NCBI GenBank assembly: GCA_977017645.1
Contig: OZ360257.1
Location: 14,694,001-14,758,000 of the forward strand
Reading direction: 5' to 3'
Source: Torpedo marmorata
Taxonomy: Eukaryota
Length of the DNA stretch: 64,000 bases
The notes below the pieces were generated by a model that had not been told where the DNA came from, ran no database searches, and saw only the letters and a program-made list of their open reading frames with translations. Below, in pieces: positions 1,962 through 58,477 of this stretch (position 1 is the first letter of the stretch; each line of letters starts with the position of its first letter). A program made the position numbers and the translations under genes.

Positions 1962-3001
1962 GGTTTCCGTACAGAACCATAGAAGACTACAGCTAAGGAT
2001 CAGGCCCTTCGGTCCATCTGGATTGTTCCGCAATATTATAGTCCCCGGTTCGATTGACCTGCACCCTGACCACAGCATTCCGTCCATACCCCTTCCATCC
2101 ATGTACAAATCTAATTTTTCTTAAATGTCAAACGTGAGCCTGCATTGACCATTTCAGTTGTAGAATCCTAGATCAAAACACCTTCATTTATACCGTTTCT
2201 CAAGTTCAGAGAAGAATTGAAGAACATGATTACACGCCCTCTTTTTCTCTTCTCCTGACCAGTATGAGCAAAATATCACGATTCTTCTGATTGGAAATGA
2301 AATATTTCAGAAAACATAATTGCATATTTTAACGGAATTGGTCTGAACTCCAGTTTTCTTTCGTTTCTCTCGTTGAAGGGATTATTCCATCAGTCCGCGC
2401 CGATGAACCTTGGGCGGTAGGAGAAAATCCTGTGTGTGCTCACAATTCATGCAACATCTGTGGAGAGAATAAAACAGAGATAGCATTTCATGTCAATGAA
2501 CTTTTATTTGAAATCAATTGTATTGACGATACAGGATTGAAAGCAATATTCGTAATGCGTTAAAAAGTCTTTAACAAAGTAGAAGGCATGGGAAGTGTGC
2601 TGCACAGTAATAGTTAGGATCAAATATGAAACGGTGAATTTTGAATAGGATATTTGGCTTGCAAATTAAGAAAAACGTTCGTTTATCATAAACGTCATGA
2701 AAGACATTCACGGGCTTTGTATTTCCAAGTTTCTTAATTGTTTGTAAATGAACATTGACCACCTGAGATTCTGTTATTTTACATTTTACCACCGTCAATC
2801 GCCAGTGCTCTTTCCAATTTCAGGTTTATTTTGAAATAATCACATTCAAACAAGACCCACTGTAAATTAAATGTAATACAGATAAAAGCCAGGCAAATAA
2901 TCATTTAGAGCGTTAATTCCAGAGGAGTATCTACAGTATTCGATAAATAGGTTATAAATACGCACCAACCTATCGCATCCTAAATTGTGTTTTATTTATT
3001 G

Positions 3002-4495
3002 AACCATATAACCATATAACAATTACAGTACAGAAACAGACCAGTTCGGCCCTTCTAGTCCACGCCGAACACCTTCTCTCACCTAGTCCCACTGACCCGC
3101 ACCCGGCCCATAACCCTCCACACCTCTCTCGTCCATATACCTATCCAACTTTTCCTTAAACATTAAAATTGAACCTGCATCTACCACTTCGGCCGGAAGC
3201 TCGTTCCACACTTCCACCACTATCTGAGTGAAGAAATTCCCCCTCATGTTTCCTCTAAACTTCCCCCCTTCAATCTCAATCCATGTCCTCCTGTTTGAAT
3301 CTTCCCAAATCTCAATAGAAAAAGCCTGTCCACATTGACTCTATCTGTCCCATTCCTAATTTTAAATACCTCTAGAAAATCACCCCTCAACCTTCTACGC
3401 TCCAGGGAATAAAGTCCCAGCCTGTTCAACCTTTCCCTGTAACTCAAACCCAGAAACCCAGGTAACATTCTTGTAAATCTCCTCTGCACTCTCTCTATTG
3501 TGTTTATATCCTTCCTGTAATTCGGCGACCAAAACTGCACACAATATTCCAAATTTGGCCTCACCAATGCCTTATACAACTTCAACATGACATCCCAACT
3601 CCTATATTCAATACTCTGATTTATGAAGGCCAACATACCAAATGCCTTCTTCACCACCATATCTACGTGTGACTCAACTTTCAGGGAATTATGTACCAGA
3701 ATTCCTAAATCCCTCTGTTTTACTGCACTTCTCAATTTACTTCCATTTAACATGTATGACCTTTGCTGATTAATCCTACCAAAATGTAGCACCTCACATT
3801 TATCAGTATTAAATTCCATCTGCCATGTTTCCGCCCACTCTTCTAACTGTCCAATATCCCCCTGCAAGCTTTGATATCCTTCTTCACTTTCCACAACACC
3901 ACCAATCTTCGTATCATCTGCATACTTACTAATCCAATTTACCACCCTATCATCTAGATCATTAATATATATGACAAACAACAATGGACCCAATACCGAT
4001 CCCTGAGGCATTCCACTAGTCACCGGCCTCCAATTTTACAATCAATTTTGCACCACTACTCTCTGGCATCTCCTATCCAACCATTGTTGAATCCATTTCA
4101 CTACTTCGTCGTTAATACCTAATGCTTGAACCTTCCTAACGAGCCTCCTATGCGGAACCTTGTCAAATGCCTTACTAAAGTCCATATAGACAACATCCAC
4201 AGCCTTCCCCTCGTCAGCCCTCTTAGTAACCTCATCAAAAAACTCTATGAGATTTGTCAAACATGATCTACCACGAGCAAAACTGTGTTGACTACTCCAA
4301 ATCAATGCTTGTCTTTCCAAATAACTGCATACGCCATCTCTAAGAACACTCTCCATTAATTTACCCACCACCGATGTCAGACTCACAGGCCTATAATTTC
4401 CAGGTTTACTTTTGGAGCCCTTCTTAAACAGCGGGACAACATGAGCTACCCTCCAATCCTCCGGCACCTCCCCCGTGGCCAGTGACATTTTAATA
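3002..4495 (-). mobile_element. CR1 LINE, 5'-truncated (RT domain to 3' tail)
   Basis: NYRPVSLTS, DFSKAFD, PQGSVLGP, YADD; (AACCATAT)n tail at ~3003-3020. Confidence 0.95.
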
Positions 4496-4689
4496 TTTCT
4501 GTCAGAGCATCAACTCACTTCATTAATTTAGAATGAAGTGGTACTGTTTATTAAATCGAGTATGTGGAGATGTTATGTAATTTAAAGTCCCAGTGGAAAC
4601 GGCTGTCCTATAAATTAGGCTTCACAGTGAATCTCTTCGTTTTCTTTCCTGGACCTGTGCTGTACAGCAAACGCTCCTAACCTTAAAAG

Positions 4690-4749
4690 CTGCCGCGCCT
4701 GGACGCCACGGAGATCTTCTATCCCATCGTGCAATTGTCGACATTCCTG
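4690..4749 (+). pseudogene. Orphan dead copy of GPCR exon 1
   Basis: Paralog of 6671-6731 with both ATGs changed to CTG, a 1-nt deletion, and donor GTAAGT changed to CTAAGT. No exon 2 follows before the gene 1 upstream region. Confidence 0.88.
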
Positions 4750-4819
4750 CTAAGTGATTTTGCGGCAATCTCCACATACACACACACACACACGCACGCA
4801 CGCACGCACACACACACAG

Positions 4820-6670: not shown

Positions 6671-6731
6671 ATGCCACGAATGGACGCCACAGAGATCTTC
6701 TATCCCAGTCTTGCAATAGTCGGCATTCCTG
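6671..6731 (+). CDS. GPR139-like GPCR gene 1, coding exon 1 (MPRMDATEIFYPSLAIVGIP-G)
   Basis: ATG at 6671, 20 codons + G, then donor GTAAGT at 6732. The phase-1 junction rebuilds TM1 GIP-GN with exon 2. The same exon precedes all five genes. Confidence 0.9.
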
Positions 6732-8947: not shown

Positions 8948-9861
8948 GTAACCTGCTCTCGATTGTGGTCCTGTCCCGGGGAATGTGCGGCCTCTCCAAA
9001 GGAGTGATTCGTTACATGGTAACCATGGCAGTTGCAGATACAATGGTCTGTGTGTTCAACGTCACAGTGACAAACGTCTTCCGCCATCATTTTCAGGGTT
9101 CATTCCTTGCACACACCTCCACTTGTCGGCTTACAGCCTTCATACAGATATTTAGCGTGCAATTGTCCGTCTGGGCCACCGTATCGTTCACAGTGGACCG
9201 CTTCATTGCCATTTGTTGCCAGCAATTCAAAACAAAATATTGTACCGAAAGAAACGCCACGGTGGTTCTTACGACTGTGGGTCTGCTGAGCGTTTTGATG
9301 CACATTCCAGCTTATTTCCGGTATGAACCCCATTACATTGCGGTTGATGTCCAATGGGGCTGCCGTACTATAACACAATATATTTCTTCACAAGCATGGC
9401 AGATTTACAGATGGTTGACTAAACTTACGGTACCACTGGTGCCGCTGCCGCTGATGTTGCTGTTGAATTCTCTCACCGTCCGACACATTTTACTTGTCAG
9501 CAGAGCTCGGAAGGCTTTGAAGCGCCATGGGGACGGTGAGATGTGTGATCCCGAGATGACGAACCGGAGGACGTCCATTATTTTGCTCTTCGCCATTTCC
9601 GGTACCTTCATTGCGTTGTGGACACCTGTTACGATAATTGACCTATTTTTCCAACTAACCTCGACTTTTGCGATCGATGCCCCGAAGTCACTGGTTCTGG
9701 CAATTAGAATCGCGATTATGCTGATGTATTTGAGCTGCTCTACAAACACTTGTGTTTATGCATTGACACAGAGGAGATTCCGGGAGGAGGTGAAGAAGGT
9801 GGCAAAATATCCATTTATTGCGGTTGTACGGTTTTTAAAACCAATTACGCAGCCACAATGA
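8948..9861 (+). CDS. GPR139-like class A GPCR gene 1, exon 2 (spliced protein 324 aa)
   Basis: Polypyrimidine tract + TTACAG acceptor at 8947. Motifs: TM2 MAVAD, C3.25, TVDRFIAIC, ECL2 WGC, TM6 LWTP, TM7 NTCVY, helix 8 FREEV. SVWATVxFTVDRFIAIC and the non-proline NxxxY resemble GPR139/142. Confidence 0.93.
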
Positions 9862-10551: not shown

Positions 10552-13500
10552 TCACGGTTAGGGGAGATACGAGGAAGAGTAAGGTGGTAGAGAGTACCCG
10601 TGAGGCTTTAACCCTCAACAACAGGTACTCCTCCTGTTCGGGGAGACATCGAAGCTGGGGTAAGCGTCAGTGGCTGTGCCTCGGGCACTGGGTCGGTCTC
10701 TGAGGCTCAGAAGAAGGGTAAGGAAAGGAAGAGGAGGGCAATTGTCATAGAGGAGCAAGGGGCAGGGATTCAAGTTTGTGGATCACTGGGACCATTTCTG
10801 GGGTAGGTGTGACCTGCACAGAAAGGACGTGTTGTATTTGAACCCCAGGGGGACCAGGATTCTGGCGGGGACATTTGCGAGGGTTACCCAGGAGACTTTA
10901 AACAAGAATGGCTGGGGGTAGGGAACAAAATGAAAGAGAACTGCAAGGAGAAGGTAAGAGTGCAATCAGTGAAAGCTTGTTGACAATGTTCGAGGGGGGA
11001 AAGGCAGGAGATAGAAAAGGGGGGTGCTCTATGCGTGGATGGAAGGAAGTCGATTGCAAAAAAGCATAATAAAGCTGTTGATAAAGATAGGGGCATACAG
11101 GAAATGAAAAATGGGAAATCTCTAAAATGCATATATTTTAATGCTTGGAACATTGTAATGAAGGTGGATGAGCTGAAGGTATGGATTGACACTTGGAAGT
11201 ATGACGTAGTGGCGATTAGTGATACATGGTTACAGGAGGGATGTGACTGGCCGCTCAATATTCCTGGATTCCGTTGCTTTAGGTGTGATAGAATCGGAGG
11301 GGCAAGAGGGGGTGGAGTTGCATTACTTGTGTGAGAAATTATCACAGCGGTGCTTCGGAATGATAGAATAGAAGGCTCGTCCAGGGAGGCTATTTGGGTG
11401 GAGTTGAGGAATGAGAAAGGGGAAGTTACACTTATAGGGGTGTATTATAGACCACCAAATGGGGAACGCGAACTAGAGGAGCAAATTAATAGGGAGATAG
11501 CAGATATTTGTAATAGGTACAGGGTAGTGATTGTGGGGGACTTTAATTTTCCCAATATTGATTGGGAAACCCATTCCGTGAAAGGACTGGATGGTTTGGA
11601 GTTTGTAAAATGTGTGCAGGATAGTCTTTTACAGCAATATGTGGAGGTACCAACTAGAGAGGGAGCTGTGTTGGATTTACTGTTGGGAAATTAGATAGGT
11701 CAGGTGACAGAGGTGTGTTTTGGGGAGCACCTCGTGTCCAGTGATCATAGTGCCATTAGTTCCGATATAAGCATGGAAAAGGATAGGTCAGGGCCCAGAG
11801 TTGAGGTTTTGGAGTGGGGAAAAGCTAAGCTTGAGGAGATGCAAAAGAATTTACAAGGGGTGGATTCAAACATCAGATAGAAATATGGAATAGAGTGGAT
11901 AGGGAGATAAGAGGGAAAGGGTTTATTTCTTCAAAAATGCCTCTATATCAAAATATATTTATTCCATTTACTGTTGATAATCAATTATTTAAAATTTGGT
12001 TTCAAAAGGGAATTAAGAAAATAAATGATTGTTTTGAAGCTGGTAAATTTATTACTTATCAAAGAATGAAAGATAACTTTAATGTATTGAATAATACACT
12101 TTTTGCTTAATATCAAATTAGAGCATTTCTAGTTGGGAAGTTAGGCTATAGTTTGACTTTACCAAGACAGAGTGAATTAGAATTATTAGTGACTAACGGA
12201 GGTATAAATAAATTTATTTCTCAAATGTATAGATTGTTTTAGAGAAAAATCTCTAAAGTAGGAATTCTTAAATCAATATTAAAATGGTAATCAGATTTGA
12301 ATGTAACAATAGATGAAGAACATTGGAAAGAATTATGTAAACTAAGTATGACGAAGATTATTAATGTTAGATATAGATTAGTTCAATATCATTTTTTTCA
12401 TCAATTATATTTAACGCCTAAAATATTAAAGATATTTAATGCGACACTATCAGGATAATGTTTTAGATGTAATAGAGAGGAAGGTTCGTTTGTACATTCT
12501 ACATGGTTTTGTCCAAAGGTTTACGATTTTTGGTTGATAGTTAAAACGTTTTCAGATAAAGTATTGAAAATTACATTCCCAATGGACTCAATGATATTTT
12601 TGTTTGGAGATATTAAAAGAGTTAGTATTAAGATGAAATTAAATATGTATCAAATAGAATGTTTGCGAATTTCTTTAGCAGTTTCTAAGAAATGTATTGC
12701 TATTACATGGAAATCTGATGTAGATTTAGGGTTAGAGAAATGGCATGCAGAATTTCGTTCATGTATACCACTTGCAAAAATTACTTATAATTTACGTAAT
12801 AAATATCATTTCTTATTGAAACTATGGAGCCCATATATGAAGGCTGTTGGTTTAAGGATTTGAAGATCTCTGGACATCGGATCTGACTGGCGAACCTATC
12901 CTCCATAATAAAATTAGTTATAGATGTATTTTTTAGATTGACATTCTCCTTATTCTATATTTTTCTTTTCTTTTTCTTTTTATTTTATTAGATTAGTTGG
13001 GATGGGAGGGTAAGGGAGTGGAGGGAGGGAGGGGGGATGAAAATGTATCACAATTATTTTGATAATTTCATATTTTAATTTAGTTATTTTGTGGTTTAAA
13101 ATTTTTAATAAAATATTTAATTAAAAAAAGGGGTGGATTGGGACCATTTGTTTTCTGGGCAGGATGTAGGAGAGAAATGGAGGTCTTTTAAGGAGAGATT
13201 TTTGGAGTAGAAAAATTTTATATACCTGTTAGGTTGAAAGGTACGGTCAAAAGTTTGAGAGAGCCATGGTTCTCAAGGGAGATTGGAAAGTTGGTTGGAA
13301 AAAAGAGGGAGGACTACAATAAATATAAGAAACATGGAAAAAAGGAGATGTTCGGACACTATATTGAAAGTAAAAAGAATCTTAATAAAGAAATTATAAA
13401 AGCTAAAAGAAGGTATGAGGTGGCTGTAGCAAGTAGGGTGAAAATAAATCCAAAGCGTTTCTATAAATATATAAATAGCAAAAGGAAAGTGAGGAATAAA

Positions 13501-15268
13501 ATTGGTCCCATAGAGAATCGGAGCGGACAAATGTGTGTGGAGCCAAAAGAGATGGGGGAGATCTCGAACAACTTATTTTCCTCAGTATTTACTGAGGAGA
13601 AGGATATTGAACGGTGCAGGGTAAAGGAAGCAAAGGGGGTATATATGGAGACTATAGTGATTAAGAAAGAGGAAGTACTGAAGCGGTTGAAGCATATAAA
13701 GGTGGATAAGGCTCCAGGCCCTGACGGGATTTTCCCCAGGATCTTGAGAGAAGTTAATGAGGAACTAGCGGAGGCTCTGGCAGGGATTTTTCAAATGTCA
13801 TTAGGGACGGGTATAGTGCCGGAGGATTGGCGTGTTGCGAATGTGGTTCCTTTGTTTAAAAAGGGTTCGAGGAGCAAGCCTAGCAATTATCGGCCTGTAA
13901 GTCTGACGTCTGTGTTGGGTAAAGTAATGGAAAGCGTTCTTAGAGATAGTGTGTATAAGTATCTGGAGAGACAGGGTCTGATCAGGGACACTCAAGACGG
14001 ATTTGTGCGTGAAGGTCATGTTTAACCAATCTTGTTGAATTTTTTGAAGAGGTGACTAGGAATGTTGATGAAGGGAGAGCAGTGGATGTTGTCTATATGG
14101 ACTTCAGTAAGGCCTTCGATAAGGTTCCGGATGGGAGGTTAGTTCGGTAGACTCAGTCGTTAGGTATTAATTTGGAGACAGTCAATTGGATTGAACAATG
14201 GCTGGAAGGAAGGTGCCAGAGAGCAGTAGTGGATACTTGTTTGTCAGGATGGAAGCAGGTGACAAGCGGTGAGCCTCAGGGTTCGGTATTGGGACTATTG
14301 CAGTTTGTCATATACATTAATGATCTGGAAGATGGAGCGGTAAGTTGGATTAGTAAATATGCAGATGATATTAAAATAGGGGGAATTGTGGATGATGAAG
14401 AGGGTTTTCAAAGATTTCGGAGGTATTTGAACTGCTTTGAGGAGGGGGCTGAAAGATGGCAGATGGAGTTTAATGCTGATAATGTGAGGGGCTTCATTTT
14501 GGAAAGAATAATCAAAGCAAGACATACGTAGTAAATGGGAGAGCATTGAAGAATGCAGTGGAGCAGAGAGATCTAGGAATAACGGTGAATTGTTTCCTAA
14601 AGGTAGGATCGCATGTGGATAGGGTGGTGAAGAAGGCCTTTAGTATGTTTGCCTATATAAATCAATGCATAGAATATAGGAGTTGGGAAGTGATGATGAA
14701 ACTGTACAAGGCATTGGTGAGACCAAATTTGGAGTACTGTGTGCAGTTCTGGTCACCGAATTATAGGAAGGATATCAACAAAATAGAGAGAGTGCAGAGA
14801 AGATTTACAAAAATGTTACCTGGGTTTCAGCAGCAGGAATACAAAGAAAGATTGAACAAAGTAGGTCTTTATTCGTTGAACGTAGAAGGCTGAGAGGAGA
14901 TTTGAAAGAGGTATTTAAGATTATGAGGGGGATAGATAGAGTTGATGTGGATAGACCTTTTTCATTGAGAGTAGGAGAGATGGATACAAGAGGTCATGGG
15001 GTGAGGGGTGACGGGAAAAGATTCAGGAGTAACATGAGGGGGAACTTCTTTACTCAGAGAGTGGTTGATGAGTGGAATGGGCTTCCGGGAGAGGTGGTGG
15101 AGGAAGGGTCAATTCTGTCATTTAAGGAAAAATTGGATAGGTATATGGATGGGAGGGGAATGGAGGGATATGGGAAGGGTGCTGGTAGGTGGGATTAGAG
15201 GAGGTTACTTGGATCGGTGCGAACTGGCCTGTTTCCATTAAGTAGTTGTTAAATTTTATATGGTTATG
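10552..15268 (+). mobile_element. Near full-length decayed CR1 LINE (ORF1 remnant, APE, RT) carrying a nested L1
   Basis: ORF1 esterase-like DHWDHFWGR; APE YFNA..SDTWL..GVYYRPP..GDFNFP; RT YADD; TTATATGG tail. Flanks rejoin the paralogous empty site at ~31040. Confidence 0.95.
11867..13127 (+). mobile_element. 5'-truncated L1-clade LINE nested in CR1
   Basis: 12-bp TSD AAGGGGTGGATT (11855-11866 and 13128-13139); CFRC..H..C zinc knuckle; AATAAA at 13107 and A-rich tail. Confidence 0.92.
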
Positions 15269-16936: not shown

Positions 16937-16997
16937 ATGCCACTAATGGACGTCACCGAGATCTTCTATCCTATTCTTGCAATTGTCGGCATTCCTG
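16937..16997 (+). CDS. GPR139-like gene 2, coding exon 1 (MPLMDVTEIFYPILAIVGIP-G)
   Basis: ATG at 16937, GTAAGT donor at 16998, paralogous to 6671-6731. Confidence 0.9.
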
Positions 16998-18739: not shown

Positions 18740-19629
18740 GTAACCTGCTCTCGATTGTGGTCCTGTCCCGGGGAATGTGCGGCCTCTCCAAAGGAGTGAT
18801 ACGTTACATGGTAACCATGGCAGTTGCAGACACAATGGTCTGTGTGTTTAACGTTACGGTGACAAACGTCTTCCGCCATCATTTTCCTCATTCATTCCTG
18901 GCACACACCTCCACTTGTCGTCTTACAATCTTCATACAGATATTTAGCGTGCAATTCTCTGTCTGGGCCACGGTATCGTTCACAGTGGACCGCTTTATTG
19001 CCATTTGTTGCCAGCAATTCAAAACAAAATATTGTACCGAAAGAAACGCCGCGGTGATTCTAACGACTGTGTGTGTGCTGAGCTTTTTGATGCACATTCC
19101 AGCCTATTTCCGGTATGAACCCATTTACATTGTGGGTGATGTCCAATGGGGCTGCCGTACTCTAACACAATATATTTATTCACCAGCATGGCAGACTTAC
19201 AGATGGTTGTCTAAACTTATGTTACCACTGGTGCCGCTCCCGCTGATGTTGCTGTTGAATTATCTCACCGTCCGACACATTTTACTTGTCAGCAGAGCTC
19301 GGAAGGCTTTGAAGCGCCGTGGGGACGGCGAGGTCTGTGATCCCGAGATGACGAACCGGAGGACGTCCATTATATTGCTCTTCGCCATTTCTGGTACTTT
19401 CATTGCGTTGTGGACACCAGTTACGATACTTGACCTATTTTTCCAACTAACCTCAACTTTTATGATCGACGCACCGAAGTCACTGTTTCTGTCAATTAGA
19501 ATCGCGATTCTGCTGATGTATTTGAGCTGCTCTACAAACACCTGTGTTTATGCATTGACACAGAGGAGATTCCGGGAGGAGGTGAAAAAGGTTGCAAAAT
19601 ATCCATTTATTGCCTTTGTATGGTTTTAA
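18740..19629 (+). CDS. GPR139-like gene 2, exon 2 (spliced protein 316 aa; C-tail 8 aa shorter)
   Basis: AG acceptor at 18738-18739 and full 7TM ORF. A 1-nt shorter T-run gives an early TAA after helix 8. Confidence 0.9.
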
Positions 19630-26294: not shown

Positions 26295-27672
26295 TAAATC
26301 TATAAAAAGGGTCATAGAGAGAATCCTGAGAATTAAAGACAGGTGAGGCTTACGTCAGTGGTGCGCAAACTATTGGAGAGGATCCTTAAGGACGGGAGTT
26401 ATGAGAATTAGGACAAAAGCATGGATTTGTGAGAGGATGATCGTGCCTCATGAGCCTCATTGCATTTTCTGATGAGATAATAAAATATATTGAGGAAAGT
26501 GTGAAGGTAGATCAGGTGTATATGGATTTCAGTGAGGCGTTTGACAAGGTTCCCCATGAAAGACTCGGTCAGAAAGACATCAGGCATTCTATCCACGGAA
26601 TCTTGGCTGTGTGGATAATAAAATTGGCTTGCCTGTAGAAAGCAGAGGACGGAACGGATCATATACTGTCTGAACGTCAGTGAGTAGTGGAGTTCCGCTG
26701 GGATATTTTCTTGAACCCCTGCTCTTTGTGATTTTCGTAAATGACCTTGATGAAGAGCGGAAGGGTGGGTCAGTAGGGTTGAAGATGATATAATGGTTGG
26801 AGGAGCTGCAGTTAGTGTTGAAGTGTGTCGTAGATTACAATGCAGAGATGGGCGCAAAAGTGGCAGATCGAGTTCAATCCGGATAAGTTTGTGAAGCATT
26901 TTGGAAGGTCAAACCTTGATGAATACAGCGTTAATGGTCGGATACTTAAGAGTGTGGAGGAACAGAGGGACCATGAAGTTCGAATCCATAGATCTCTCAG
27001 TGTTTCCACGCAGGTTGATAGGATAGTTAAGAAGGCCTATGGGATGCTGTGTTTCAATAATAGGGGGATTGAGTTCAATAGTATAGAGGTCATGTTGCAA
27101 ATCTACACACCTCTGGTGAGACCATACTTATAGTATTTTATTCTGTTCTGGCCACATCGTTATAGGAAGGATGTGGAAACTATGGAGAGGGTGCGGAGGA
27201 GATTTACCAGGGTATTGCCTGGATTGGAAAATGTCTTCTGAGGCACGGTTAGTAGAGCAAGTACTTTTCTGTTTGGAGCGAAGAAGGATGAGAGGTGACT
27301 TCATAAAAGTCTACAAGAATATATACAGTAGATAGGGTAGAGAGCAAGCGCCTTTTTCGCAGGGAGGGAATAGCAAACACCAGGGGACGTTTGCACAAAG
27401 TGAAGGGAGGAAGGTTGAGGGGAGATATCAGAGGTAAATTATTCACACAGAGATGGAGGAGCCGGCAATGCTTTGCCAGGTTGGTGGTGGGGGTTGAAAC
27501 ATTTTGGGTATTTAAGAGACTCGGAGACAGGCACATGGATGAACGAAAATTAGAGGATTAAGAGGTTGGAAGGTTTCAGTATTTTTTTTGGTAGGAATAT
27601 ACAGGTCGGCACAACATTGAAGGCCGAATAGCCTGTACTGTGCTCTCATGTTCCATCTTCTATGTTCTATGT
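26295..27672 (+). mobile_element. Decayed CR1 LINE (RT to tail)
   Basis: MDFSEAFDKVPH; (TTCTATG)n tail. Confidence 0.9.
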
Positions 27673-28160
27673 TTTGAAACTACTTTGATGCCAATCGTGA
27701 TTCTTTTCCATGTAATTTACGGCCTCTCAAAATGCATCACTCAGTGGTTGCTGGGAATGGCAGAAGCTGACTGAGTGGTTGTGAAACTTTATATGAATTG
27801 ATTTTATATGAGATTGACGATCGGTATTTTCCACATTCAGACTTCAATCAGACTTCTCTCTGTAGAGTTTTTCTGACCATGTTATTTATTTCCATTGACG
27901 GTTCAATGTGACTAACTGTGGCTTTCATGTTCGATCGATTTTTTGCAATTTGTCACCAAACGCTACAATCAAAATATTGCACAGAAAATAATTCATCTGT
28001 AGCGAAAGCGCGGTGGAATTTTCCTCAACATTTGGAGAAAACACCATTTCATTTACTAACCTCGAGACGTAATTGATATTGTTGAATAATCCTGCAGGTA
28101 ATATCATGCTTTTGCACCTTATGAATTTGAGCAGCTATTCTCTGGCAGGAAACAGTCTTT

Positions 28161-30182
28161 TTTTATTAATATTTTATTTTAAATTTTAAATTTTCTCACA
28201 GTAATACAACATACGTAGTATACATTATTAATTCCAGTAAATAAAAGACATAGTTTGTATTACAGTGTATCTAACCCCTCTCTTAACCCACCCTCTATAA
28301 AGTTGCCCACCGTCCACCCTTCCCCTCCTTTAAATTCCCTCCCCTTACTAAAAACTAAAGAAAAGAACAGAAAAGAAGGCATTGGTATTTCTTATCAAAA
28401 ACATCTGAACGGATCGCTGCTGGGTCCACGGCTCGACGCGCGGCATTCAACAATATTTATTCTTTGAATTTGAGAGAGTCAACAGGGTCGAGGATGTAGA
28501 GCAACACATTTAAATATTCATACCTAATGATTGGATATATGGACGCCAAATTTTCAAAAATATCCCATATTTGTTTCTCATATTATGTTATTCTTTCCAA
28601 TGGAATACAGCTCCGCATCTCTGAATTCCACCTATCCATGCTTAAATTTGTATCTGATTTCCAAGTTACTGCTATACACTTCCTTGCTACTGCTAAAGCA
28701 ATTTTTACAAATTTCAATTGACATGTAGATAGCTTCAACTTTGGTCCAGTTCCTTCCACATTCCCTAATAAAAATAAATCAGGATTCTGTGGAAATGTAA
28801 CACCTGTAATTTGTTTTAATCGGTTTTCTAACTCTATCCAAAAACATTTGACTTTAGAACATAACCATGTTGAATGTAGAAAAGTTCCCTCCACTTCGCC
28901 ACATCTAAAACACTTATTTGATAGCGTAGATTTTATCTTATTCAATTTTTGTGGTGTAAGGTATAATTGATGTAAAAAATATACTGTACTAATCTATATC
29001 TTACATTAATAGTATTAGTCATACTATCTTGACATAAATCCGACCACCTTTTTTCATCAATTGTAACATTAAGATCTTGCTCCCATCTTTGTCTAGATTT
29101 ATGAAGTCCTCGTTTTAAAGTTCCACTTTGGAGCAAAGAATACATTATAGATGTAATTTTTTTAATATTTACTTTCCTAATAAGGGTTTCTACCTCACTA
29201 CAATCTTGTAACAACATATCTGGACCTAGTGTTTCTCTTAGATAACCTCTTAATTGAAAATAACGAAAAAGAGTGTTATTGGGTATTCCATATTTATTCC
29301 GTAATTGTATAAACGACATCAACTGGTTCCCTTCATAACAATCTTCTATCTTCTTTATTCCCTTCTGTGACCATATGTTTAAAAATTGATTATCTTTTGT
29401 AAATGGTATAAGATTATTCTGTATCAAAGACATTTTGGGTGATATATTTCCTTTCATCCCTATCTCATAACTAATCTTGTTCCAAGCATTAATCAAATGT
29501 TTTAACAACGGTGTTTCTTTAACACCTGTCAATAATTTTGAATTCCATTTATATATAAATTCTTCTGGTACCTTTTCTCCTATTTCACCAAGCTCTATTC
29601 CAACCCATCCAGGTCTTCCTTCACTTTCAAAAAAAGAGGTAACATATCTCATTTGTGCCGCTCGATAATAATTCTTAAAATTAGGGAGTTGTAGACTTCC
29701 CAGTTCATATTTCCATGTTAAACGTTCCATAGAAACTCTTGACATTTTACCTTTCCAAAGAAATTTTCGCACTTGTTTGTTTAAACCCTGAAAAAAAACC
29801 TGTGGTAATAAAATAGGTATAGTTTGATAGAAGTTCTGTATCCTTGGAAATATATTCATTTTAATACAGTTAACTCTTCCAATCAATGTAATAGGTAAAT
29901 TAATCCATTTTTACAAGTCTTCTTTAATCTTTTTAAGAAATGGTAGATAATTCCATTTATATAATTTTTTTAATGTGTTATCTGTTCGAAACCCAAGATA
30001 TTTTAATCCATTATGTGGCCATTTAAACTGAGTACTTCTTTTACATAAAGTATAATCTCCCTCTGTAAGAGGCATAATTTCACTTTTATCCCAATTTATC
30101 TTATAACCAGAGACTTTCCCATATTCCTCCAATTTAAAATGCAATCTTTGCAAAGAGGTCTCAGGCTCTGTCAAATATATTA
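28161..30182 (-). mobile_element. 5'-truncated L1-clade LINE inserted in GPCR pseudogene B
   Basis: 11-bp TSD AAACAGTCTTT (28150-28160 and 30183-30193); SGYKINWDKS, KYLG, CFRCGEVEGTFLHSTWLC; T-rich tail on the left. Confidence 0.93.
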
Positions 30183-30509
30183 AAACAGTCTTTAACTCTT
30201 TTGCTCTTTATGTCTTTATCTTGGCGCCAAATTCCTGACCATCAGCCGCATTATACTGGCTAACCGAGCGAGGAGAGAACTACGAAGAAGGAACACCAAT
30301 GCGAATCTCAGTGTCGCAGAGATGGGGAACCGCAGGAAACCGATAATGTTGCTGCTGGTCATTTCCAGCACGTTTATTCTCTTCAGTATGGCTTTCATAT
30401 GCGTGCAATTTACTGATACGCAGTTTTTGGAAGGAAGCTGCAATGATACCTTCACCATTGCGGGATTGTCGGGTTATATGCTGATGTTTTCGATTTCTTG
30501 CCCAATCCC

Positions 30510-30752
30510 ATTGTTACCAATAGCGGTTGGAGCAACGCTATTACAGCGCCAGCGACAGGGTTCATTTCCAGCGCTACTGTAAGGAGTTTGTACGTTCTCC
30601 ACATGTCTACGTGTGTTTCCTCCGTGCCCTCCGGTTTCCTCCCAAATAAAAAAAAACGTAAGGAGGTTGAAAGTTAATTGTGGTATTTTGGTGGCACCGG
30701 CTCGTGGGCCGGAAGTGCCTGTTCCCGTTCCGTATGCTACATTTTAAATTTA
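30510..30752 (+). mobile_element. V-SINE inserted in TM7 of pseudogene B
   Basis: SINE core interrupts the frame between LMFSISCP and NHFIVAL; partial copy at ~10097-10262. Confidence 0.75.
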
Positions 30753-32647
30753 AACCACTTCATTGTTGCACTCTCCCAGAGACAATTCAGAGAGGGTCTG
30801 AAGAATCTGGTAAAATGTCCAGTGAATCTTCTGACCAAGGCAAACAACTGCAAGGAATGACACCAGTTTATTTTCTCAAATAACAAAATGAATAACCTCG
30901 AACAAAGTAAACAAACATCACTGTACGTGTATGACCACAAATGGACCTTCAAATGAAAATTGGGTCTGTGGAAGGTGCACAGAACATAAAATATACAACA
31001 CACTGCAGACCCTTCAGTACACGACATTGTGCCAAGTTACGTAAACCCGTTCCACAACAATATTATTTCCCAAGCGCACACCGATAACGCTATATCTTTC
31101 TTACACCATGTTCCTAACTTGGAGACATTAGAATGTCCCTATTGTAGCAATCTCCACCACCACCACAGGCAATGATTTCGAGGGACCAACCACTATCTGT
31201 TTAAAAACGTAACTCCCACATTTGCCTTAAAGTTTCCTTTACTCACCTTAATAAGCTGTCCTCCGGTATTAACTATTGTCGCCCCAGGAAACAGGTGCTG
31301 AATGTCCAAACATTCTAAGCCCCCTTATGACCTTATATACCTCTGTTTATTCACCTGACATCCACAGAGAAAAGCTCTATCTCTGTCAACCTTGCTCCAT
31401 ATGACATGGTCTCCAATCCAGGCAATAAAATATCCTGATAAATATCTGTACACTCTCTAATGAATGTACATACTTGTAGTAACAAAGCGACAGGAACTGA
31501 ACGCAATATTCCAAGTGTGGTCTCACCAGAGTTTTATGGGTCTGCAAAATTTCCTCTCGGCTTTTATCCGACGAATGAAGTCCAACCCACCATACACCTT
31601 CTTGACCAGCGCGTCAACTTGCGCAGCAACCTTGAGAGTGTATTAACATGGACCCCAAGATCTCTCAGTTCCTCCAAACTGTTAGCAATTCTGCCATTAA
31701 CACGCACTCCGCCTTCGATTCGACCTCCAAAGTGCACTACACTTAACCGTATTGAACTCAATCTGCCACTTCTCTGCCCAACTCCGCATCCTGTCTATAT
31801 CCCGTTATATCCCACGACAGCCTTCTGCACTCCCGACAACACTGTGAACCGTTGGATGATTAGCAAATGCAAAGAAAATAGAGCACAGAAAGAAATTCTC
31901 TGATTGGACTTGATGCCTTCGAACCAACCCTCAGCGTTTATGCATTACCCCAAATACCACAGGCGATCCAAACAGTCCTCGGATCTGTGTGGCGTTTGCA
32001 ACAAAAATTAACTCAGCATTTCAAGCGGGACGGTTCACGTCACAGTTCAGCGCAACACATTCACAGCGTCAGCGAAACGGGTTCAAATACAGCGCTGTCC
32101 TGGAAGGTGTTTTATTGCTTTCCCTCGTGAACTGCTCGGTTTCCCCGGGTACTCTGGTTTCTTCCCACTCACGAAAAAAAGTATGGGGTTGGCATGTTCA
32201 TTGGATGTGATTTGGCAGCACGGGCGACATGAGCTAAGGGTCTGTATATTTTAAACAAAACTTCAGTCAGTCCAGCATGGCAGTCGACGAGTGAAAACAA
32301 ATCCTCAGGTCAGACCGACTGATGAACTTTTGAAAACTCATGGGAAAAAAGTTATTTTCAGGTGTATAATAATGAAAAGGAAAATATATGTGATAATCAG
32401 GATCATTGGGAACAAACAACGGAGAGAATCGCGAACATGTACCCCCAGGGACGAGGTTAAAGCGAAGCAAATGGAGATAGATGAACGCGACACTCCAGTG
32501 TCACGGTTCCACGTCAGGTGATGCAGCGAGCTCGCACCTGAACCTTGTTTATTACAATAACTAGTGATAGTTACTCTGGGAGGAGCGATCGTAGGTCATT
32601 AAGTTAGAATAAACTGATAGTCTTTGTTAAATCGAGTATGTGGAGGT

Positions 32648-32764: not shown

Positions 32765-32825
32765 ATGCCACGAATAGAAGCCACGGAGATCTTCTATCCC
32801 ATTCTTGCAATTGTCGGCATTCCTG
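32765..32825 (+). CDS. GPR139-like gene 3, coding exon 1 (MPRIEATEIFYPILAIVGIP-G)
   Basis: ATG at 32765, GTAAGT donor at 32826. Confidence 0.9.
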
Positions 32826-34012: not shown

Positions 34013-34926
34013 GTAACCTGCTCTCCATTGTGGTCCTGTCCCGGGGAATGTGCGGCCTCTCCAAAGGAGTGACTCGTTACATGGTAACCATGGCCGTTGC
34101 AGACACAATGGTCTGTGTGTTTAACGTTACAGTGACAATCGTCTTCCGCCATCATTTTCCTCATTCATTCCTGGCACATACCTCCACTTGTCGTCTTACA
34201 GACTTCATGCAGATATTTAGCGTGCAATTCTCTGTCTGGGCCACGGTACTGTTCACAGTAGACCGCTTCATTGCCATTTGTTGCCAGCAATTCAAAACAA
34301 AATATTGTACCGAAAGAAACGCCACGGTGATTCTGACAACTGTGGGTCTGCTGAGCTTTTCGATGCACATTCCAGCTTATTTCCGGTATGAACCCCATTA
34401 CATTGTGGGTGATGTCCAATGGGGCTGCCGTACAATAACACAATATATTTATTCACCAGCATGGCAGACTTACAGATGGTTGTCTAAACTTATGGTACCA
34501 CTGGTGCCGCTGCCGCTGATGTTGCTGTTGAATTCTCTCACCGTCCGACACATTCTACTTGTCAGCAGAGCTCGGAAGGCTTTGAAGCGCCGTGGGGACG
34601 GTGAGGTCTGTGATCCCGAGATGACGAACCGGAGAACGTCCATTATTTTGCTCTTCGCCATTTCCGGTACCTTCATAGCGTTGTGGACACCGGTTACGAT
34701 AATTGACCAATATTTCCATCTCACGTCAAGTTTTTCGATCGACGCCCCGAAGTCACTGCTTCTGGCAATTAGAATCGCGATTCTGCTGATGTATTTGAGC
34801 TGCTCTACAAACACTTGTGTTTATGCAATGACACAGAGGAGATTCCGGGAGGAGTTGAAGAAGGTGGTAAAATATCCATTTATTGCCCTTGTACGGTTTT
34901 TAAAACCAATGACGCAGCCACAATGA
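34013..34926 (+). CDS. GPR139-like gene 3, exon 2 (spliced protein 324 aa)
   Basis: AG acceptor at 34011-34012; intact 7TM ORF with DRF, LWTP and NTCVY. Confidence 0.93.
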
Positions 34927-39944: not shown

Positions 39945-41336
39945 TCTCTAAAAAGGGTAATAGAGAGTGTCCTGAGAATTACAGACAGGTGAGGCTTACG
40001 TCAGTGGTGTGAAAACTATCGGAGAGGATTGTTAAGGACACGATTTATGAGCATTTGGAGAAGTACAGTCGTCTGAGAGACATAAGCATGGCTTTGTGAG
40101 GGGATGGTCGTGCCTCATGAGCCTCATTGCATTTGCTGAGGAGATAACAAAATATAATGAGGAAAGTGTGCCTTTAGACAAGGTACATATGGATTTCAGT
40201 GAGGCGTTTGACAAGGTTCCCCATGAAGGACTCGGTCAGAAAGACATCAGGCATTCTATCCACGGAATCTCAGCTGTGTGGATAAAAAATTGGCTTGCCT
40301 GTAGAAAGCAGAGGACGGCACAGAAAGTATTCTGTCTGGAAGTCAGTGACCAGTGGAGTTCCGCAAGGATTTTTTCTAGAACCCCTGCTCTTTGTGCATT
40401 TTATAAATGACCGAGATGAAGAGCGGAAGGGTGTGTCAGTAGGTTTGCAGATGATATAATGGTTGGAGGAGCTGCAGTTAGTGTTGAAGTTTGTCGTAGA
40501 TTACAATGCAGAGATGAGCGCAAAAGTGGCAGATCGACTTCAATCCGGATAAGTTTGTGAAGCATTTTGGAGGGTCAAACCTTGATGAATACAGCATTAA
40601 TGGTCGGATACTTAGGAGTGTGGAGGAACAGAGGTACCTTGAAGTTAAAATCCATAGATCTCTCAATGTTTCCGCGCAGGTTGATAGGATAGTTAAGAAG
40701 GCCTAGGGATGCTGGGTTTCAATAATAGGGAGATTGAGTTCAATAGTATAGATGTCATGTTGCAACTCTACACACCTCTGGTTAGACCATACTTATAGTA
40801 TTGTATTCAGTTATGGCCACATCGTTATAGGAAGGATGTGGAAACTGTGGAGAGGGTGCGGAGGAGATTTACCAGTGTATTGCCTGGATTGGAAAATGTC
40901 TTCCGAGGCAAGGTTAGTAGAGCAGGGACTTTTTTGTTTAGAGTGAAGAAGGATGAGAGGTGACTTAATCAAAGTCTACAAGAATATAGACAGTAGATAG
41001 GGAAGACAGCAAGCGCCTTTTCGCAGGGAGGGAATAGCAAACACCAGGGGACGTTTGCACAAAGTGAAGGGAGGAAGGTTGAGGGGAGATATCAGGGGTA
41101 AATTATTCACAAATAGATGGAGGTGCCGGCAATGCTTTGCCAGGTTGGTGGTGGGGGCTGAATCACTTTGGGTATTTAAGAGACTCGTAGACAGGCACGT
41201 GGATGAACGAAAATTAGAGGATTAAAAGTTTGGAAGGTTTCAGTATTTTCTTGGTAGGAATATACAGATCGGCACAACATTGAAGGCCGAATAGCCTGTA
41301 CTGTGCTGTCATGTTCCATGTTCTATGTTATATGTT
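39945..41336 (+). mobile_element. Segmental copy of CR1 26295-27672
   Basis: Same lesions and same flanks as 26295-27672. Confidence 0.9.
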
Positions 41337-41347
41337 TTGAAACTACT

Positions 41348-41908
41348 TTGCTGCCAAACGTCATTCTGTTCCATGTAATTTACGGCCTCTCAAAATGCAT
41401 CACTCAGTGGTTGCTGGGAATGGCAGAAGCTGACTGAGAAGTTGTGAAACTGTATATGAATTGATTTTATATGAGATTAACGATCGGTCTTTTCCACATT
41501 CACACTTCAATCAGACTTCTCTCTGTAGAGTTATTCTGACCATGTTATTTATTTCCATTGACGGTTCAATGTGACTAACTGTGGCTTTCATGTTCGATCG
41601 ATTTTTTGCTATTTGTCACCAAACGCTACAAGCAAAATATTGCACTGAAAATAATTCATCTGTAGCGAAAGCGCGGTGGAATTTTCCTCAACATTTGGGA
41701 AAAAACACCATTTTATTTATTAACCTCGGGAAGTAATTGATAACGTTGAATTATCCTGCAATGTAATATCATGTTTTTACACCTTATGAATTTGAGCAGT
41801 TATTCTCTGGCAGTAAAAAGTCTTTAACTCATTTGCTCTTTATGTCTTTATCTTGGCGCCACATTCCCTGACCATCAGCCGCATTATACTGGCTATCCGA
41901 GCGAGGAG
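41348..41908 (+). pseudogene. Lineage-B GPCR pseudogene copy, no L1 insertion, truncated after ICL3
   Basis: Collinear with 27685-28160 joined to 30194-30272; contains GLSKC and FDRFFAICHQ. Confidence 0.85.
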
Positions 41909-42975
41909 GCCAACCCACCATACACCCTCTTTACCAGCGCGTCAACTCGCGCAGCAACCTTGAGGGGTGTATTAACATGGACCCCAAGATCTCTCAGTTC
42001 CTCCAAACTGTAAGAAATACTGTCATTAACACGCACTCCGCCTTCGATTCGGCCTCCAAAGTGCACTACACTTTACCGTATTGAACTCAATTTGCCACTC
42101 CTCTGCCCAACTCCGCATCCTGTCTATATCCCGTTATAACCCACGACAGCCTTCTGCACTCCCGACAACACTGTGAACCGTTGTATCATTAGCAAATGCA
42201 AAGAAAATAGAGCACAGAAAGAAATTCTCTGATTGGACTTGATGCCTTCGAACCAACCCTCAGCGTTGATGCATTACCCCAAACACCACAGGCGATCCAA
42301 ACACTCCTCGGATCTGTGTGGCGTTTGCAACAAAAATTAAATCAGGATTTCAAGGGGGACGGTTCACGTCACAGTTCAGCGCAACACATTCACAGCGTCA
42401 GCGACGCGGGTTCAAATACAGCGCTGCCCTGGAAGGTGTTTTATTGCTTTCCCTCGTGAACTGCTCGGTTTCCCAGGGTACTCTGGTTTCTTCCCACTCA
42501 CGAAAAAAAGTATGGAATTGGCATGTTCATTGGATGTAATTTGGCAGCACGGGCGTCATGCGCTAAGTGTCTGTATATTTTAAATAAATCTTCAGTCAAG
42601 CTAGCATGGCAGTCGACGTGTGAAAACAAACCATCTGGTCAGACCGACTGATGAACTTTTGAAAACTCATTGGAATAAAGTTATTTTCAGGTGTATAATG
42701 ATAAAAAGGAAAATATGTGTGATAATCAGGATCATTGGGAACAAACAAAGGAGAGAATTGCGAACACGTACCCCAGGGACGAGGTTAAAGCGAAGCAAAT
42801 GGAGATAGATGAACGCGACACTCCAGTGTCACGGTTCCACGTCAGGTGATGCAGCGAGCTCGCACCTGAACCTTGTTTATTACAATAACTAGTGTTAGTT
42901 ACTCTGGGCGGAGTGATCTCAGGTCATTAAGTTAGAATGAACTGATAGTCTTTGTTAAACCGAGTATGTGGAGGT

Positions 42976-43091: not shown

Positions 43092-43152
43092 ATGCCACGA
43101 ATGAAAGCCACGGATATCTTCTATCACATTATTGCAATTGTCGGCATTCCTG
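43092..43152 (+). CDS. GPR139-like gene 4, coding exon 1 (MPRMKATDIFYHIIAIVGIP-G)
   Basis: ATG at 43092, GTAAGT donor at 43153. Confidence 0.9.
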
Positions 43153-44905: not shown

Positions 44906-45819
44906 GTAACCTGCTCTCGATTGTGGTCCTGTCACGGGGAATGCGCGGCCTCTCCAAAGGAGTGACTCGTTACATGGTAACCATGGCAGTTGCAGACACA
45001 ATGGTCTGTGTGTTTAACGTTACAGTGATATTCGTCTTCGGCTATCATTTTCCTCATTCATTCCTGGCACATACCTCCACTTGTCGTCTTACAGACTTCA
45101 TACAGAAATCCAGCGTGCAATTTTCTGTCTGGGCCACGGTATCGTTCACAGTGGACCGCTTCATTGCCATTTGTTGCCAGCAATTCAAAACAAAATATTG
45201 TACCGAAATAAACGCCACGGTAGTTCTTACGACTGTGTGTGTGCTGAGCTTTTTGATGCACATTCCAGCTTATTTCCGGTATCAACCCCATTACATTGCG
45301 GGTGATGTCCAATGGGGCTGCCGTACTATAACACGATATATTTCTTCACCAGCATGGCAGACTTACAGATGGTTGTCTAAACTTATGGTACCACTGGTGC
45401 CGCTGCTGCTGATGTTGCTGTTGAATTCTCTCACCGTCCGACACATTTTACTTGTCAGCAGAGCTCGGAAGGCTTTGAAGAGCCGTGGGGACGGTCAGGT
45501 ATTTGATCACGAGATGACGAAACGGAGAACGTCCATTATATTGCTCTTCGCCATTTCTGGTACCTTCATAGCGTTGTGGACACCGGTTACGATAATTGAC
45601 CAATACTTCCATCTCACCTCAAGTTTTTCGATCGACGCCCCGAAGTCACTGCTTCTGGCAATTAGAATCGCGATTCTGCTGATGTATTTGAGCTGCTGTA
45701 CAAACACTTGTGTTTATGCAATGACACAGAGGAGATTCCGGGAGGAGGTGAAGAAGGTGGCAAAACATCCATTTATTGCCCTTGTACGGTTTTTAAAACC
45801 AATGACGCAGCCACAATGA
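44906..45819 (+). CDS. GPR139-like gene 4, exon 2 (spliced protein 324 aa)
   Basis: AG acceptor at 44904-44905; intact 7TM ORF. Confidence 0.93.
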
Positions 45820-52584: not shown

Positions 52585-53977
52585 AATCTCTAAAAAGGGT
52601 AATAGAGAGTATCCTGAGAATAACCGACAGGTGAGGCTTACGTCACTGGTGTGAAAACTATCGGAGAGGATTCTTTAGGACACGATTTATGAGCATTTGG
52701 AGAAGTACAGTCGTCTGAGAGACATAAGCATGGCTTTGTGAGGGGATGGTCGTGCTTCATGAGCCTCGTTGCATTTTCTGAGGAGATAACAAAATATATT
52801 GAGAAAAATGTGCTTTAGACAAGGTACATATGGATTTCAGTAAGGCGTTTGACAAGGTTCCCCATGAAAGACTCGGTCAGAAAGACATCAGGCATTCTAT
52901 CCACGGAATCTCAGCTGTGTGGATAAAAAATTGGCTTGCCTGTAGAAAGCAGAGGACGGCACAGAAAGTATTCTGTCTGGAAGTCAGTGACCAGTGGAGT
53001 TCCGCAAGGATTTTTTCTAGAACCCCTGCTCTTTGTGCATTTTATTAATGACCGAGATGAAGAGCGGAAGGGTGTGTCAGTAGGTTTGCAGATGATATAA
53101 TGGTTGGAGGAGCTGCAGTTAGTGTTGAAGTTTGTCGTAGATTACAATGCAGAGATGAGCGCAAAAGTGGCAGATCGACTTCAATCCGGATAAGTTTGTG
53201 AAGCATTTTGGAAGGTCAAACCTTGATGAATACAGCATTAATGGTCGGATACTTAGGAGTGTGGAGGAACAGAGGTACCTTGAAGTTAAAATCCATAGAT
53301 CTCTCAATGTTTCCGCGCAGGTTGATAGGATAGTTAAGAAGGCCTAGGGATGCTGGGTTTCAATAATAGGGAGATTGAGTTCAATAGTATAGATGTCATG
53401 TTGCAACTCTACACACCTCTGGTTAGACCATACTTATAGTATTGTATTCAGTTATGGCCACATCGTTATAGGAAGGATGTGGAAACTGTGGAGAGGGTGC
53501 GGAGGAGATTTACCAGTGTATTGCCTGGATTGGAAAATGTCTTCCGAGGCAAGGTTAGTAGAGCAGGGACTTTTTTGTTTAGAGTGAAGAAGGATGAGAG
53601 GTGACTTAATCAAAGTCTACAAGAATATAGACAGTAGATAGGGAAGACAGCAAGCGCCTTTTCGCAGGGAGGGAATAGCAAACACCAGGGGACGTTTGCA
53701 CAAAGTGAAGGGAGGAAGGTTGAGGGGAGATATCAGAGGTAAATTATTCACACAGAGATGGAGGAGCCGGCAATGCTTTGCCAAGTTGGTGGTGGGGGCT
53801 GAATCACTTTGGGTATTTAAGAGACTCGTAGACAGGCACGTGGATGAACGAAAATTAGAGGATTAAAAGTTTGGAAGGTTTCAGTATTTTCTTGGTAGGA
53901 ATATACAGATCGGCACAACATTGAAGGCCGAATAGCCTGTACTGTGCTGTCATGTTCCATGTTCTATGTTATATGTT
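52585..53977 (+). mobile_element. Segmental copy of CR1 26295-27672
   Basis: Same lesions and same flanks as 26295-27672. Confidence 0.9.
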
Positions 53978-53988
53978 TTGAAACTACT

Positions 53989-55731: not shown

Positions 55732-55792
55732 ATGCCACGAATGAAAGCCACGGATATCTTCTATCACATTATTGCAATTGTCGGCATTCCTG
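55732..55792 (+). CDS. GPR139-like gene 5, coding exon 1 (same peptide as gene 4)
   Basis: ATG at 55732, GTAAGT donor at 55793. Confidence 0.9.
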
Positions 55793-57563: not shown

Positions 57564-58477
57564 GTAACCTGCTCTCGATTGTGGTCCTGTCACGGGGAAT
57601 GCGCGGCCTCTCCAAAGGAGTGACTCGTTACATGGTAACCATGGCAGTTGCAGACACAATGGTCTGTGTGTTTAACGTTACAGTGATATTCGTCTTCGGC
57701 TATCATTTTCCTCATTCATTCCTGGCACATACCTCCACTTGTCGTCTTACAGACTTCATACAGAAATCCAGCGTGCAATTTTCTGTCTGGGCCACGGTAT
57801 CGTTCACAGTGGACCGCTTCATTGCCATTTGTTGCCAGCAATTCAAAACAAAATATAGTACCGAAATAAACGCCACGGTAGTTCTTACGACTGTGTGTGT
57901 GCTGAGCTTTTTGATGCACATTCCAGCTTATTTCCGGTATCAACCCCATTACATTGCGGGTGATGTCCAATGGGGCTGCCGTACTATAACACGATATATT
58001 TCTTCACCAGCATGGCAGACTTACAGATGGTTGTCTAAACTTATGGTACCACTGGTGCCGCTGCTGCTGATGTTGCTGTTGAATTCTCTCACCGTCCGAC
58101 ACATTTTACTTGTCAGCAGAGCTCGGAAGGCTTTGAAGAGCCGTGGGGACGGTCAGGTATTTGATCACGAGATGACGAAACGGAGAACGTCCATTATATT
58201 GCTCTTCGCCATTTCTGGTACCTTCATAGCGTTGTGGACACCGGTTACGATAATTGACCAATACTTCCATCTCACCTCAAGTTTTTCGATCGACGCCCCG
58301 AAGTCACTGCTTCTGGCAATTAGAATCGCGATTCTGCTGATGTATTTGAGCTGCTGTACAAACACTTGTGTTTATGCAATGACACAGAGGAGATTCCGGG
58401 AGGAGGTGAAGAAGGTGGCAAAACATCCATTTATTGCCCTTGTACGGTTTTTAAAACCAATGACGCAGCCACAATGA
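57564..58477 (+). CDS. GPR139-like gene 5, exon 2 (324 aa; differs from gene 4 by KYC>KYS in ICL2)
   Basis: AG acceptor at 57562-57563; intact 7TM ORF. Confidence 0.92.

Follow-up and report, generated by a model that had tools for sequence, protein, structure and literature searches.

A large tandem family of class A receptor genes in the ray Torpedo marmorata evolves faster in its extracellular than in its intracellular half

Introduction

The window analysed here, a stretch of 64,000 nucleotides of the Torpedo marmorata genome (contig OZ360257.1 of assembly GCA_977017645.1), contains five similar receptor genes in tandem. A first-pass annotation proposed that their differences cluster at ligand-pocket positions above a conserved G-protein face. 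The locus raises the question of which receptors these are, how many of them the genome holds and whether selection has diversified their outer face.

Cartilaginous fishes are described as having a paucity of GPCRs in the accessible text of PMC8455134. The accessible text of PMC11979771 gives a canonical catshark repertoire of 2 ORs, 3 V1R-type, 3 TAAR and 32 V2R genes, and cites 1,948 olfactory receptors for the elephant. In the literature on GPR139-like genes in sharks, rays and cartilaginous fishes that our search covered, with subscription papers mostly outside that coverage, the expansion reported below is undescribed; the genes appear in the NCBI annotation under GPR139 names.

Structure and class of the window genes

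The five open frames of the window, each of about 325 codons, are the second exons of two-exon genes (Table 1). In all five genes, exon 1 closes with G/GTAAG and is spliced in phase 1 to TTACAG/GT AAC across the single coding intron, yielding products of 316–324 aa. The open frame upstream of position 8948 was rejected as coding sequence, the region being intron. Gene-bearing repeat units are 10–17 kb long. For genes 4 and 5, the units share 97% identity across 14.5 kb, and the two genes are 99.3% identical over 4.5 kb.

A Pfam scan of genes 1 and 4 matched only 7tm_1 (E 8e-20 and 7e-23). With this domain, seven helices, D2.50, a DRY-like motif, W6.48/P6.50 and N7.49–Y7.53, the proteins belong to class A. 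The activation motifs are near-invariant in 99 proteins, with position 7.50 being T instead of P. The structure predicted from a 120-sequence alignment reached a pLDDT of 85.8 (36.6 from a five-sequence alignment).

Other remnants were also observed in the window. An orphan copy of exon 1 (about 4690–4755), upstream of exon 1 of gene 1, lacks the ATG, is frameshifted and has an altered donor. Broken fragments of more distant subfamilies within this receptor family lie between the intact genes (1379–1940, 27640–28073, 30208–30842, 41303–41961 and 53968–54602), as do degenerate LINE reverse-transcriptase remnants (3002–4511, 11904–12863, 13192–15265 and 28535–29910), which we take to be CR1-like and L1-like from their motifs.

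Table 1 Features of the five receptor genes, in window coordinates
Feature	Position	Strand	Remarks
Gene 1 exon 1	6671..6731	+	ATG to phase-1 donor G/GTAAG; short N-terminus and first half of TM1
Gene 1 exon 2	8948..9861	+	TM1 to stop; spliced product 324 aa, 7tm_1
Top of TM2 and ECL1 (2.61 to ECL1 codon 50)	9070..9099	+	Rapid change; 2.65 recurs in two other subfamilies
Top of TM3 (3.28–3.34)	9133..9153	+	3.29 at 9136–9138, 3.33 at 9148–9150 (gene 1 codons)
ECL2 with C45.50	9322..9390	+	Array dN/dS 1.13
ICL3	9520..9558	+	6 of 13 sites variable among the five genes
ECL3	9661..9687	+	Highest amino-acid rate of the loops (2.3); synonymous rate also highest (2.86)
Gene 2 exon 1	16937..16997	+	
Gene 2 exon 2	18740..19629	+	Product 316 aa
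Gene 3 exon 1	32765..32825	+	
Gene 3 exon 2	34013..34926	+	Product 324 aa
Gene 4 exon 1	43092..43152	+	
Gene 4 exon 2	44906..45819	+	Product 324 aa
Gene 5 exon 1	55732..55792	+	
Gene 5 exon 2	57564..58477	+	Differs from gene 4 by one residue

Relationship to GPR139 and GPR142

GPR139 and GPR142 are orphan class A receptors for L-Trp/L-Phe and melanocortin-type peptides. The closest named proteins of the window genes are from the electric ray Narcine bancroftii (78–83%), followed by sharks. GPR139 is the best PDB match of the protein and, by 26 bits (E 5e-23 vs 3e-15 for the next match), of the family profile; the nearest PDB relatives of the profile are GPR139 and peptide receptors, and GPR139 ranks second among 500 Foldseek matches. 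The family also has the phase-1 TM1 intron of GPR139 at the same place, before N1.50, and both C3.25 and C45.50 are present. Based on the closest solved relative and the common intron, the family is related to GPR139/142, and public annotation labels most of its members 'probable GPR139'.

However, gene 1 is only about 25% identical to GPR139, and the family falls outside the GPR139+GPR142 clade (FastTree). The GPR139 ligand residues E3.32, F3.33, H5x43, R6x51 and N7x38 (from the accessible part of PMC8807744) are replaced by Q, I/V/K/R, S/T, V and I/L, respectively. Orthology with GPR139 was rejected: the true ortholog is a separate locus (L129 on C56), 98% identical to a ray GPR139 and the only match of a GPR139 motif in the genome.

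In the FastTree analysis, its members make up a separate clade, in which several subfamilies are common to sharks and rays. Proteins of salamander, coelacanth and teleost origin cluster with this clade and not with GPR139/142 (SH-like support 0.98–1.0). These trees, which hold no unrelated class A outgroups, suggest another lineage, the third related to GPR139/142, whose amplification spans sharks and rays. As a lead only, this lineage may correspond to the GPR210A/B subtype of Rinne et al. (PMC6504862), whose accessible text names coelacanth (ENSLACP00000014196, ENSLACP00000015589) and fish genes as GPR210A/B and does not contain the word 'shark'. The grouping of the coelacanth relative with the expansion fits this assignment, whereas the salamander members are not expanded and represent one conserved cluster. 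The salamander relatives (P0443, P0502–P0505) form a single 90% cluster spanning three genera. The Atlas listing contains several chordate 'GPR139' clusters, followed by FMRFamide/Srw-type clusters. According to the accessible text of PMC8557429, both aromatic amino acids and peptides elicit a response from GPR139, and RFamide/Wamide peptides do so from its protostome kin.

Size of the family

A genome search returned at least 130 scored matches, all on contig C80 between 14.14 and 16.72 Mb, in an array of 2.6 Mb to which the five window genes belong. Genome-wide, the TM3 family motif occurs 3,193 times (1,668 + 1,525; control 0) and the TM7 motif 2,656 times (1,357 + 1,299; control 1). Both motifs undercount, the former catching 96 and the latter 40 of 128 array loci. 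A second query gave 123 further full-length matches on dozens of contigs, 122 of them stop-free. About 3,000 motif-bearing copies lie on many contigs (C39, C45, C52, C78, C83–C133 and smaller ones); several subfamilies are interleaved every 30–100 kb over the initial 12 Mb of C39, and likewise on numerous contigs of medium size.

Exon 2 was intact in 17 of 20 copies sampled along the listed C39 matches (95% interval 62–97%), in 5 of 10 copies from small clusters on C5, C11, C30 and C31, and in 0 of 10 dispersed fragments. Provided that C39 is typical, and with exon 1 judged in the window only, extrapolation gives about 2,000–3,000 intact copies.

The dispersed fragments are a repeat of about 0.9 kb (L180–L189 on C1, C2, C5, C22, C25, C30 and C31), which contains a TM2–TM4 piece of the family exon in copies 83–92% identical and resembles part of a gene that a mobile element has picked up. 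That the motif count reflects mainly this mobile fragment was rejected, as only 31 of the 3,193 TM3 matches, all exact, belong to it.

Uncollapsed haplotypes could in principle account for most of the copy count. The assembly consists of 4,566 contigs, many matches lie on small ones, and some pairs are 99.4–99.9% identical over 3.9 kb. Retained haplotypes could at most double the count, however, and no pair among the 17 intact C39 samples exceeds 96% identity. Locus L161 is without an exact twin, its 39 relatives being 96–99% identical (next best 99, 98 and 97%). In public data, one member has matches at E ≤ 1e-10 in 2,151 protein clusters (90% identity); those with names among the 120 listed all come from sharks or rays. 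We therefore regard a mostly artefactual count as very improbable. Distinct receptors are nevertheless fewer than copies: a single gene is present in at least 39 additional copies of about 99% identity, which points to DNA amplification more than to tuning.

Variation among the five window genes

Among the five genes, 57 of 290 codons differ in the encoded amino acid. The residues listed in the first-pass annotation were read correctly: with 25 ungapped residues from C3.25 (TSTC) to R3.50 (DRF), position 3.29 is A/I/D/D/D and position 3.33 is I/I/I/K/K in genes 1–5, and the reported variants of TM2/ECL1, ECL2 and TM6 as well as three fixed stretches are all present. As genes 4 and 5 are near-twins, their shared D/D and K/K represent one event each.

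The proposed clustering in the pocket did not emerge from five genes alone. Variation affects 9 of the 34 positions that we take as the generic class A pocket, placed by generic numbering, vs 48 of 256 other sites (Fisher p = 0.20). The 15 mappable GPR139 contacts, taken from the accessible part of PMC8807744, gave a similar result (4 of 15 vs 53 of 275 elsewhere, p = 0.34). The sole significant split is a coarse one, with 33 of 126 extracellular vs 24 of 164 intracellular sites variable (p = 0.011), and it weakens when set against synonymous sites (33:14 vs 24:22, p = 0.058). The TM6 difference DLFFQL/DQYFHL comprises changes at 6.56, 6.57 and 6.59 and spares the counterparts of GPR139 contacts 6x55 and 6x58. 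ICL3, located between two of the fixed stretches, had been passed over.

Substitution rates in the array

All 130 array matches were examined. Early stops or frameshifts excluded ten of them, and the 120 intact copies gave 104 distinct sequences over 290 codons. The codon model used reproduces IQ-TREE M0 (lnL -8837.9, omega 0.54).

A dN/dS uniform across domains, named beforehand as the outcome contrary to the proposal, was not seen. Values were 0.71 for the extracellular and 0.41 for the intracellular half (synonymous rates 1.53 and 1.48; permutation p = 5e-5), and 1.07 for pocket-facing helix sites vs 0.45 for other extracellular helix sites (permutation p = 0.003). These contrasts hold with 3 or 5 segment trees. 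Parsimony counts of nonsynonymous to synonymous changes, with CpG transitions excluded, agree with them (104:28 vs 104:88, p = 3e-6); in the same counts, extracellular and intracellular loops did not differ (p = 0.37).

Within the pocket, dN/dS was 1.07 in the upper and 0.71 in the deep part. The pocket as a whole was indistinguishable from 1 (0.91, LRT 0.3), and six upper TM2/TM3 sites, picked post hoc, reached 2.6. The charge-changing character of the pocket substitutions was borne out, with 27 charge-class changes at 31 pocket positions vs 6 at 55 neighbours. Neither the deep pocket nor the GPR139 contacts were enriched; for the contacts compared to the rest, dN/dS was 0.54 (permutation p = 0.31). 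The clustering that five genes were too few to reveal is hence found in the array for pocket-facing sites; it concerns the pocket rim and loops, but not the 15 positions at which GPR139 binds its ligands. TM6 residues 231–236 were rejected as a hot spot (dN/dS 0.67).

The presumed conservation of the G-protein face agrees with its array dN/dS of 0.33, but does not extend to ICL3, which is variable among the five genes and shows 22 charge changes at its 13 sites in the array, or to position 2.40, which also varies. At this intracellular TM2 site (codon 20, window 9007–9009), repeated I/T toggling was observed (9 amino-acid changes, 1 synonymous), which could be due to conversion or a coupling switch.

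At site 3.29, 13 amino-acid changes were inferred in the array, none of them CpG, next to 0 synonymous ones; site 3.33 has 7 and 1, respectively. Some rapid sites are CpG-driven, namely codons 131 (6 of 7 changes) and 39 (7 of 8).

Positive selection and relaxed constraint

With a constant rate across sites, the comparison of M8a and M8 gave an LRT of 34.4, with 12 sites above 0.9, nine of them extracellular. Gene conversion is strong in the array (PHI p = 0.0005; about 660 lnL units gained with three segment trees), and segment trees left the constant-rate LRT at 28.6 and 30.3. Synonymous rate variation among sites is real (68 lnL units). After addition of a site-rate gamma, the LRT fell to 5.1 (one tree) and 2.2 (five trees), and 17 of 20 data sets simulated without dN/dS > 1 reached 34.4 in the constant-rate test. 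Because the null simulations reproduce its signal and the LRT collapses with gamma, the standard M7/M8-type test, which the annotation had suggested, is unreliable here and should be used with caution on such arrays, where it yields a false signal. The gamma control is in turn conservative, since it also absorbs real amino-acid rate differences. Site 3.29 scored 0.91–1.00 as long as rates were constant, and 0.56 and 0.89 once gamma was included; on a free grid, P(dN>dS) was 0.98 and 1.00. The intracellular site 2.40 also ranks high. The data of the C80 array do not allow dN/dS > 1 to be told apart from relaxed constraint combined with site-rate variation.

Two further subfamilies of this genome were analysed: subfamily B (19 distinct of 22 loci, obtained as top matches to P0068, plus one C39 sample) and subfamily C (12 loci, with numbering that relies on a gapped alignment). 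With the site-rate control, the LRT for 1, 3 and 5 segments was 37.9, 23.0 and 22.6 in B (null maximum 12.1, n = 7 simulations) and 10.6, 9.1 and 6.7 in C (null maximum 3.2, n = 8 simulations). In both, dN/dS > 1 does survive this control. Single-tree sites above 0.9 are all extracellular (5 of 126 vs 0 of 166 intracellular in B; 6 of 138 vs 0 of 165 in C). The top sites include 3.29, 2.65, ECL2 and ECL3 in B and 2.62, 2.65, ECL1 and ECL2 in C, so that 2.65 recurs in both and 3.29 in B only. Segment trees raise the intracellular sites 2.40 and 5.74 in B. In subfamily C (L161, L163, L164, L169, L170 and L172–L178), the TM2–ECL1 region is about 11 residues longer; it varies strongly and contains many aromatic and acidic residues.

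Of five other paralog groups, four were more variable on the extracellular than on the intracellular side (p < 0.05). Among protein sets of other species, the contrast was seen in Mustelus, Heptranchias and Pristiophorus (p < 0.05), with p = 0.07 in bamboo sharks. Pocket vs non-pocket differences were non-significant in 2 of 5 other groups. Position 3.33 is invariant in all five, and its K/R switch is therefore specific to the C80 array. Purifying selection on the inside is strong (dN/dS 0.28–0.41).

These results bear on an alternative in which the array is a selfishly or neutrally amplified repeat under relaxed constraint, with a tolerant outer face, mostly redundant copies, and conversion and rate variation that mimic selection. 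The pocket dN/dS near 1, the conversion and synonymous rate variation, the M8 signal reproduced by null simulations, the near-identical copies of one gene and the CpG-driven codons 131 and 39 are all in line with it. Conversely, frames are open in 120 of 130 and 17 of 20 copies with the inside strongly constrained, the non-CpG changes at 3.29 are matched by no synonymous change and recur in subfamily B, subfamilies B and C lie above their nulls, and several subfamilies are common to sharks and rays. We consider this alternative unlikely on balance.

Functional interpretation and comparison with known receptor families

What stands out most is how large the family is; the inference from five genes was underpowered, and the contrast between outside and inside holds in the full array. 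The interpretation that we favour, with slightly better than even confidence, is that these intact two-exon class A genes form a huge tandem family distinct from, though related to, GPR139/142, with a faster extracellular half, and serve as a repertoire for varied external small-molecule or peptide cues. Given that the ligand-facing half changes faster, the copies probably constitute a sizeable and overlooked sensor set for diverse chemical cues. The gene structure, the array size, the genome-wide motif counts, gene conversion, the rate contrast and the separation from true GPR139 are direct results; the origin and working of the family are inferred from them. Tandem duplication and conversion would generate new copies, and purifying selection would maintain the activation motifs (D2.50, DRF, W6.48, P6.50, N7.49, Y7.53), the deep pocket and the G-protein face. 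Constraint would be loose at the rim of the pocket (2.61, 2.65, 3.28, 3.29, 3.33, ECL1–3, 7.32), with a few sites there under positive selection. Rim changes would then shift the ligand preference of individual copies that all converge on the same signalling path, so that a change of ligand specificity among paralogs, as first proposed, may be inferred. The conserved floor, variable rim and TM3–ECL2 disulfide pair would suit peptides or amino-acid derivatives as ligands.

Formyl-peptide (FPR) and Mas-related (MRGPR) receptors offer a comparison for another use, in which the family would form an immune or barrier surveillance set, carried by leukocytes, skin or gut, for the detection of peptides from microbes or parasites, its rim being engaged in a host-pathogen race. 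The rapid rim and loop change with charge swaps would fit peptide ligands, but thousands of copies exceed the sizes of FPR/MRGPR-type families as we know them, and we hold this use to be quite improbable. It would be consistent with the response of GPR139 itself to peptides besides amino acids (PMC8557429, accessible text).

Going by the precedent of birth-and-death receptor families, a chemosensory role would be the likeliest use of the favoured sensor repertoire. More specifically, sharks and rays may hold an unrecognised fifth chemosensory GPCR family, derived from a GPR139-related amino-acid/peptide receptor and numbering about 2,000–3,000 intact copies in this ray; we regard this as tentative and somewhat doubtful. 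A catshark study counts against a chemosensory reading: no GPCR is among its 50 most abundant, specific olfactory-library genes, and V2Rs are its main olfactory family (PMC11979771, accessible text). A gene named 'GPR139' is high in the snail osphradium (PMC10638732, accessible text).

A class A receptor family that runs to thousands of copies, most of them intact, that diversifies on its outer face and is concealed by the automatic name 'probable GPR139' is at odds with the GPCR-poor picture of these fishes. If the family is indeed the fifth chemosensory one, it would rival the elephant olfactory receptors and overturn the view of cartilaginous fishes as poor in GPCRs and smelling with about 30–40 V2Rs. 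Whatever the tissue, the family offers a route to how sharks and rays achieve chemical discrimination.

By sequence, no membership in the OR, TAAR, V1R or V2R families was found, the Pfam scan of genes 1 and 4 having given 7tm_1 only. The likeness to these families and to nematode srw/srz lies in the large, clustered birth-and-death repertoire, with tandem clusters and pseudogenes, and in the diversified extracellular over a conserved inner face; in contrast to them, the ray family has one coding intron. In the accessible texts of PMC2576165 and PMC8557429, nematode srw is derived from FMRFamide/myosuppressin-type receptors, which are kin of GPR139, and is described as expanded and proposed to sense environmental peptides.
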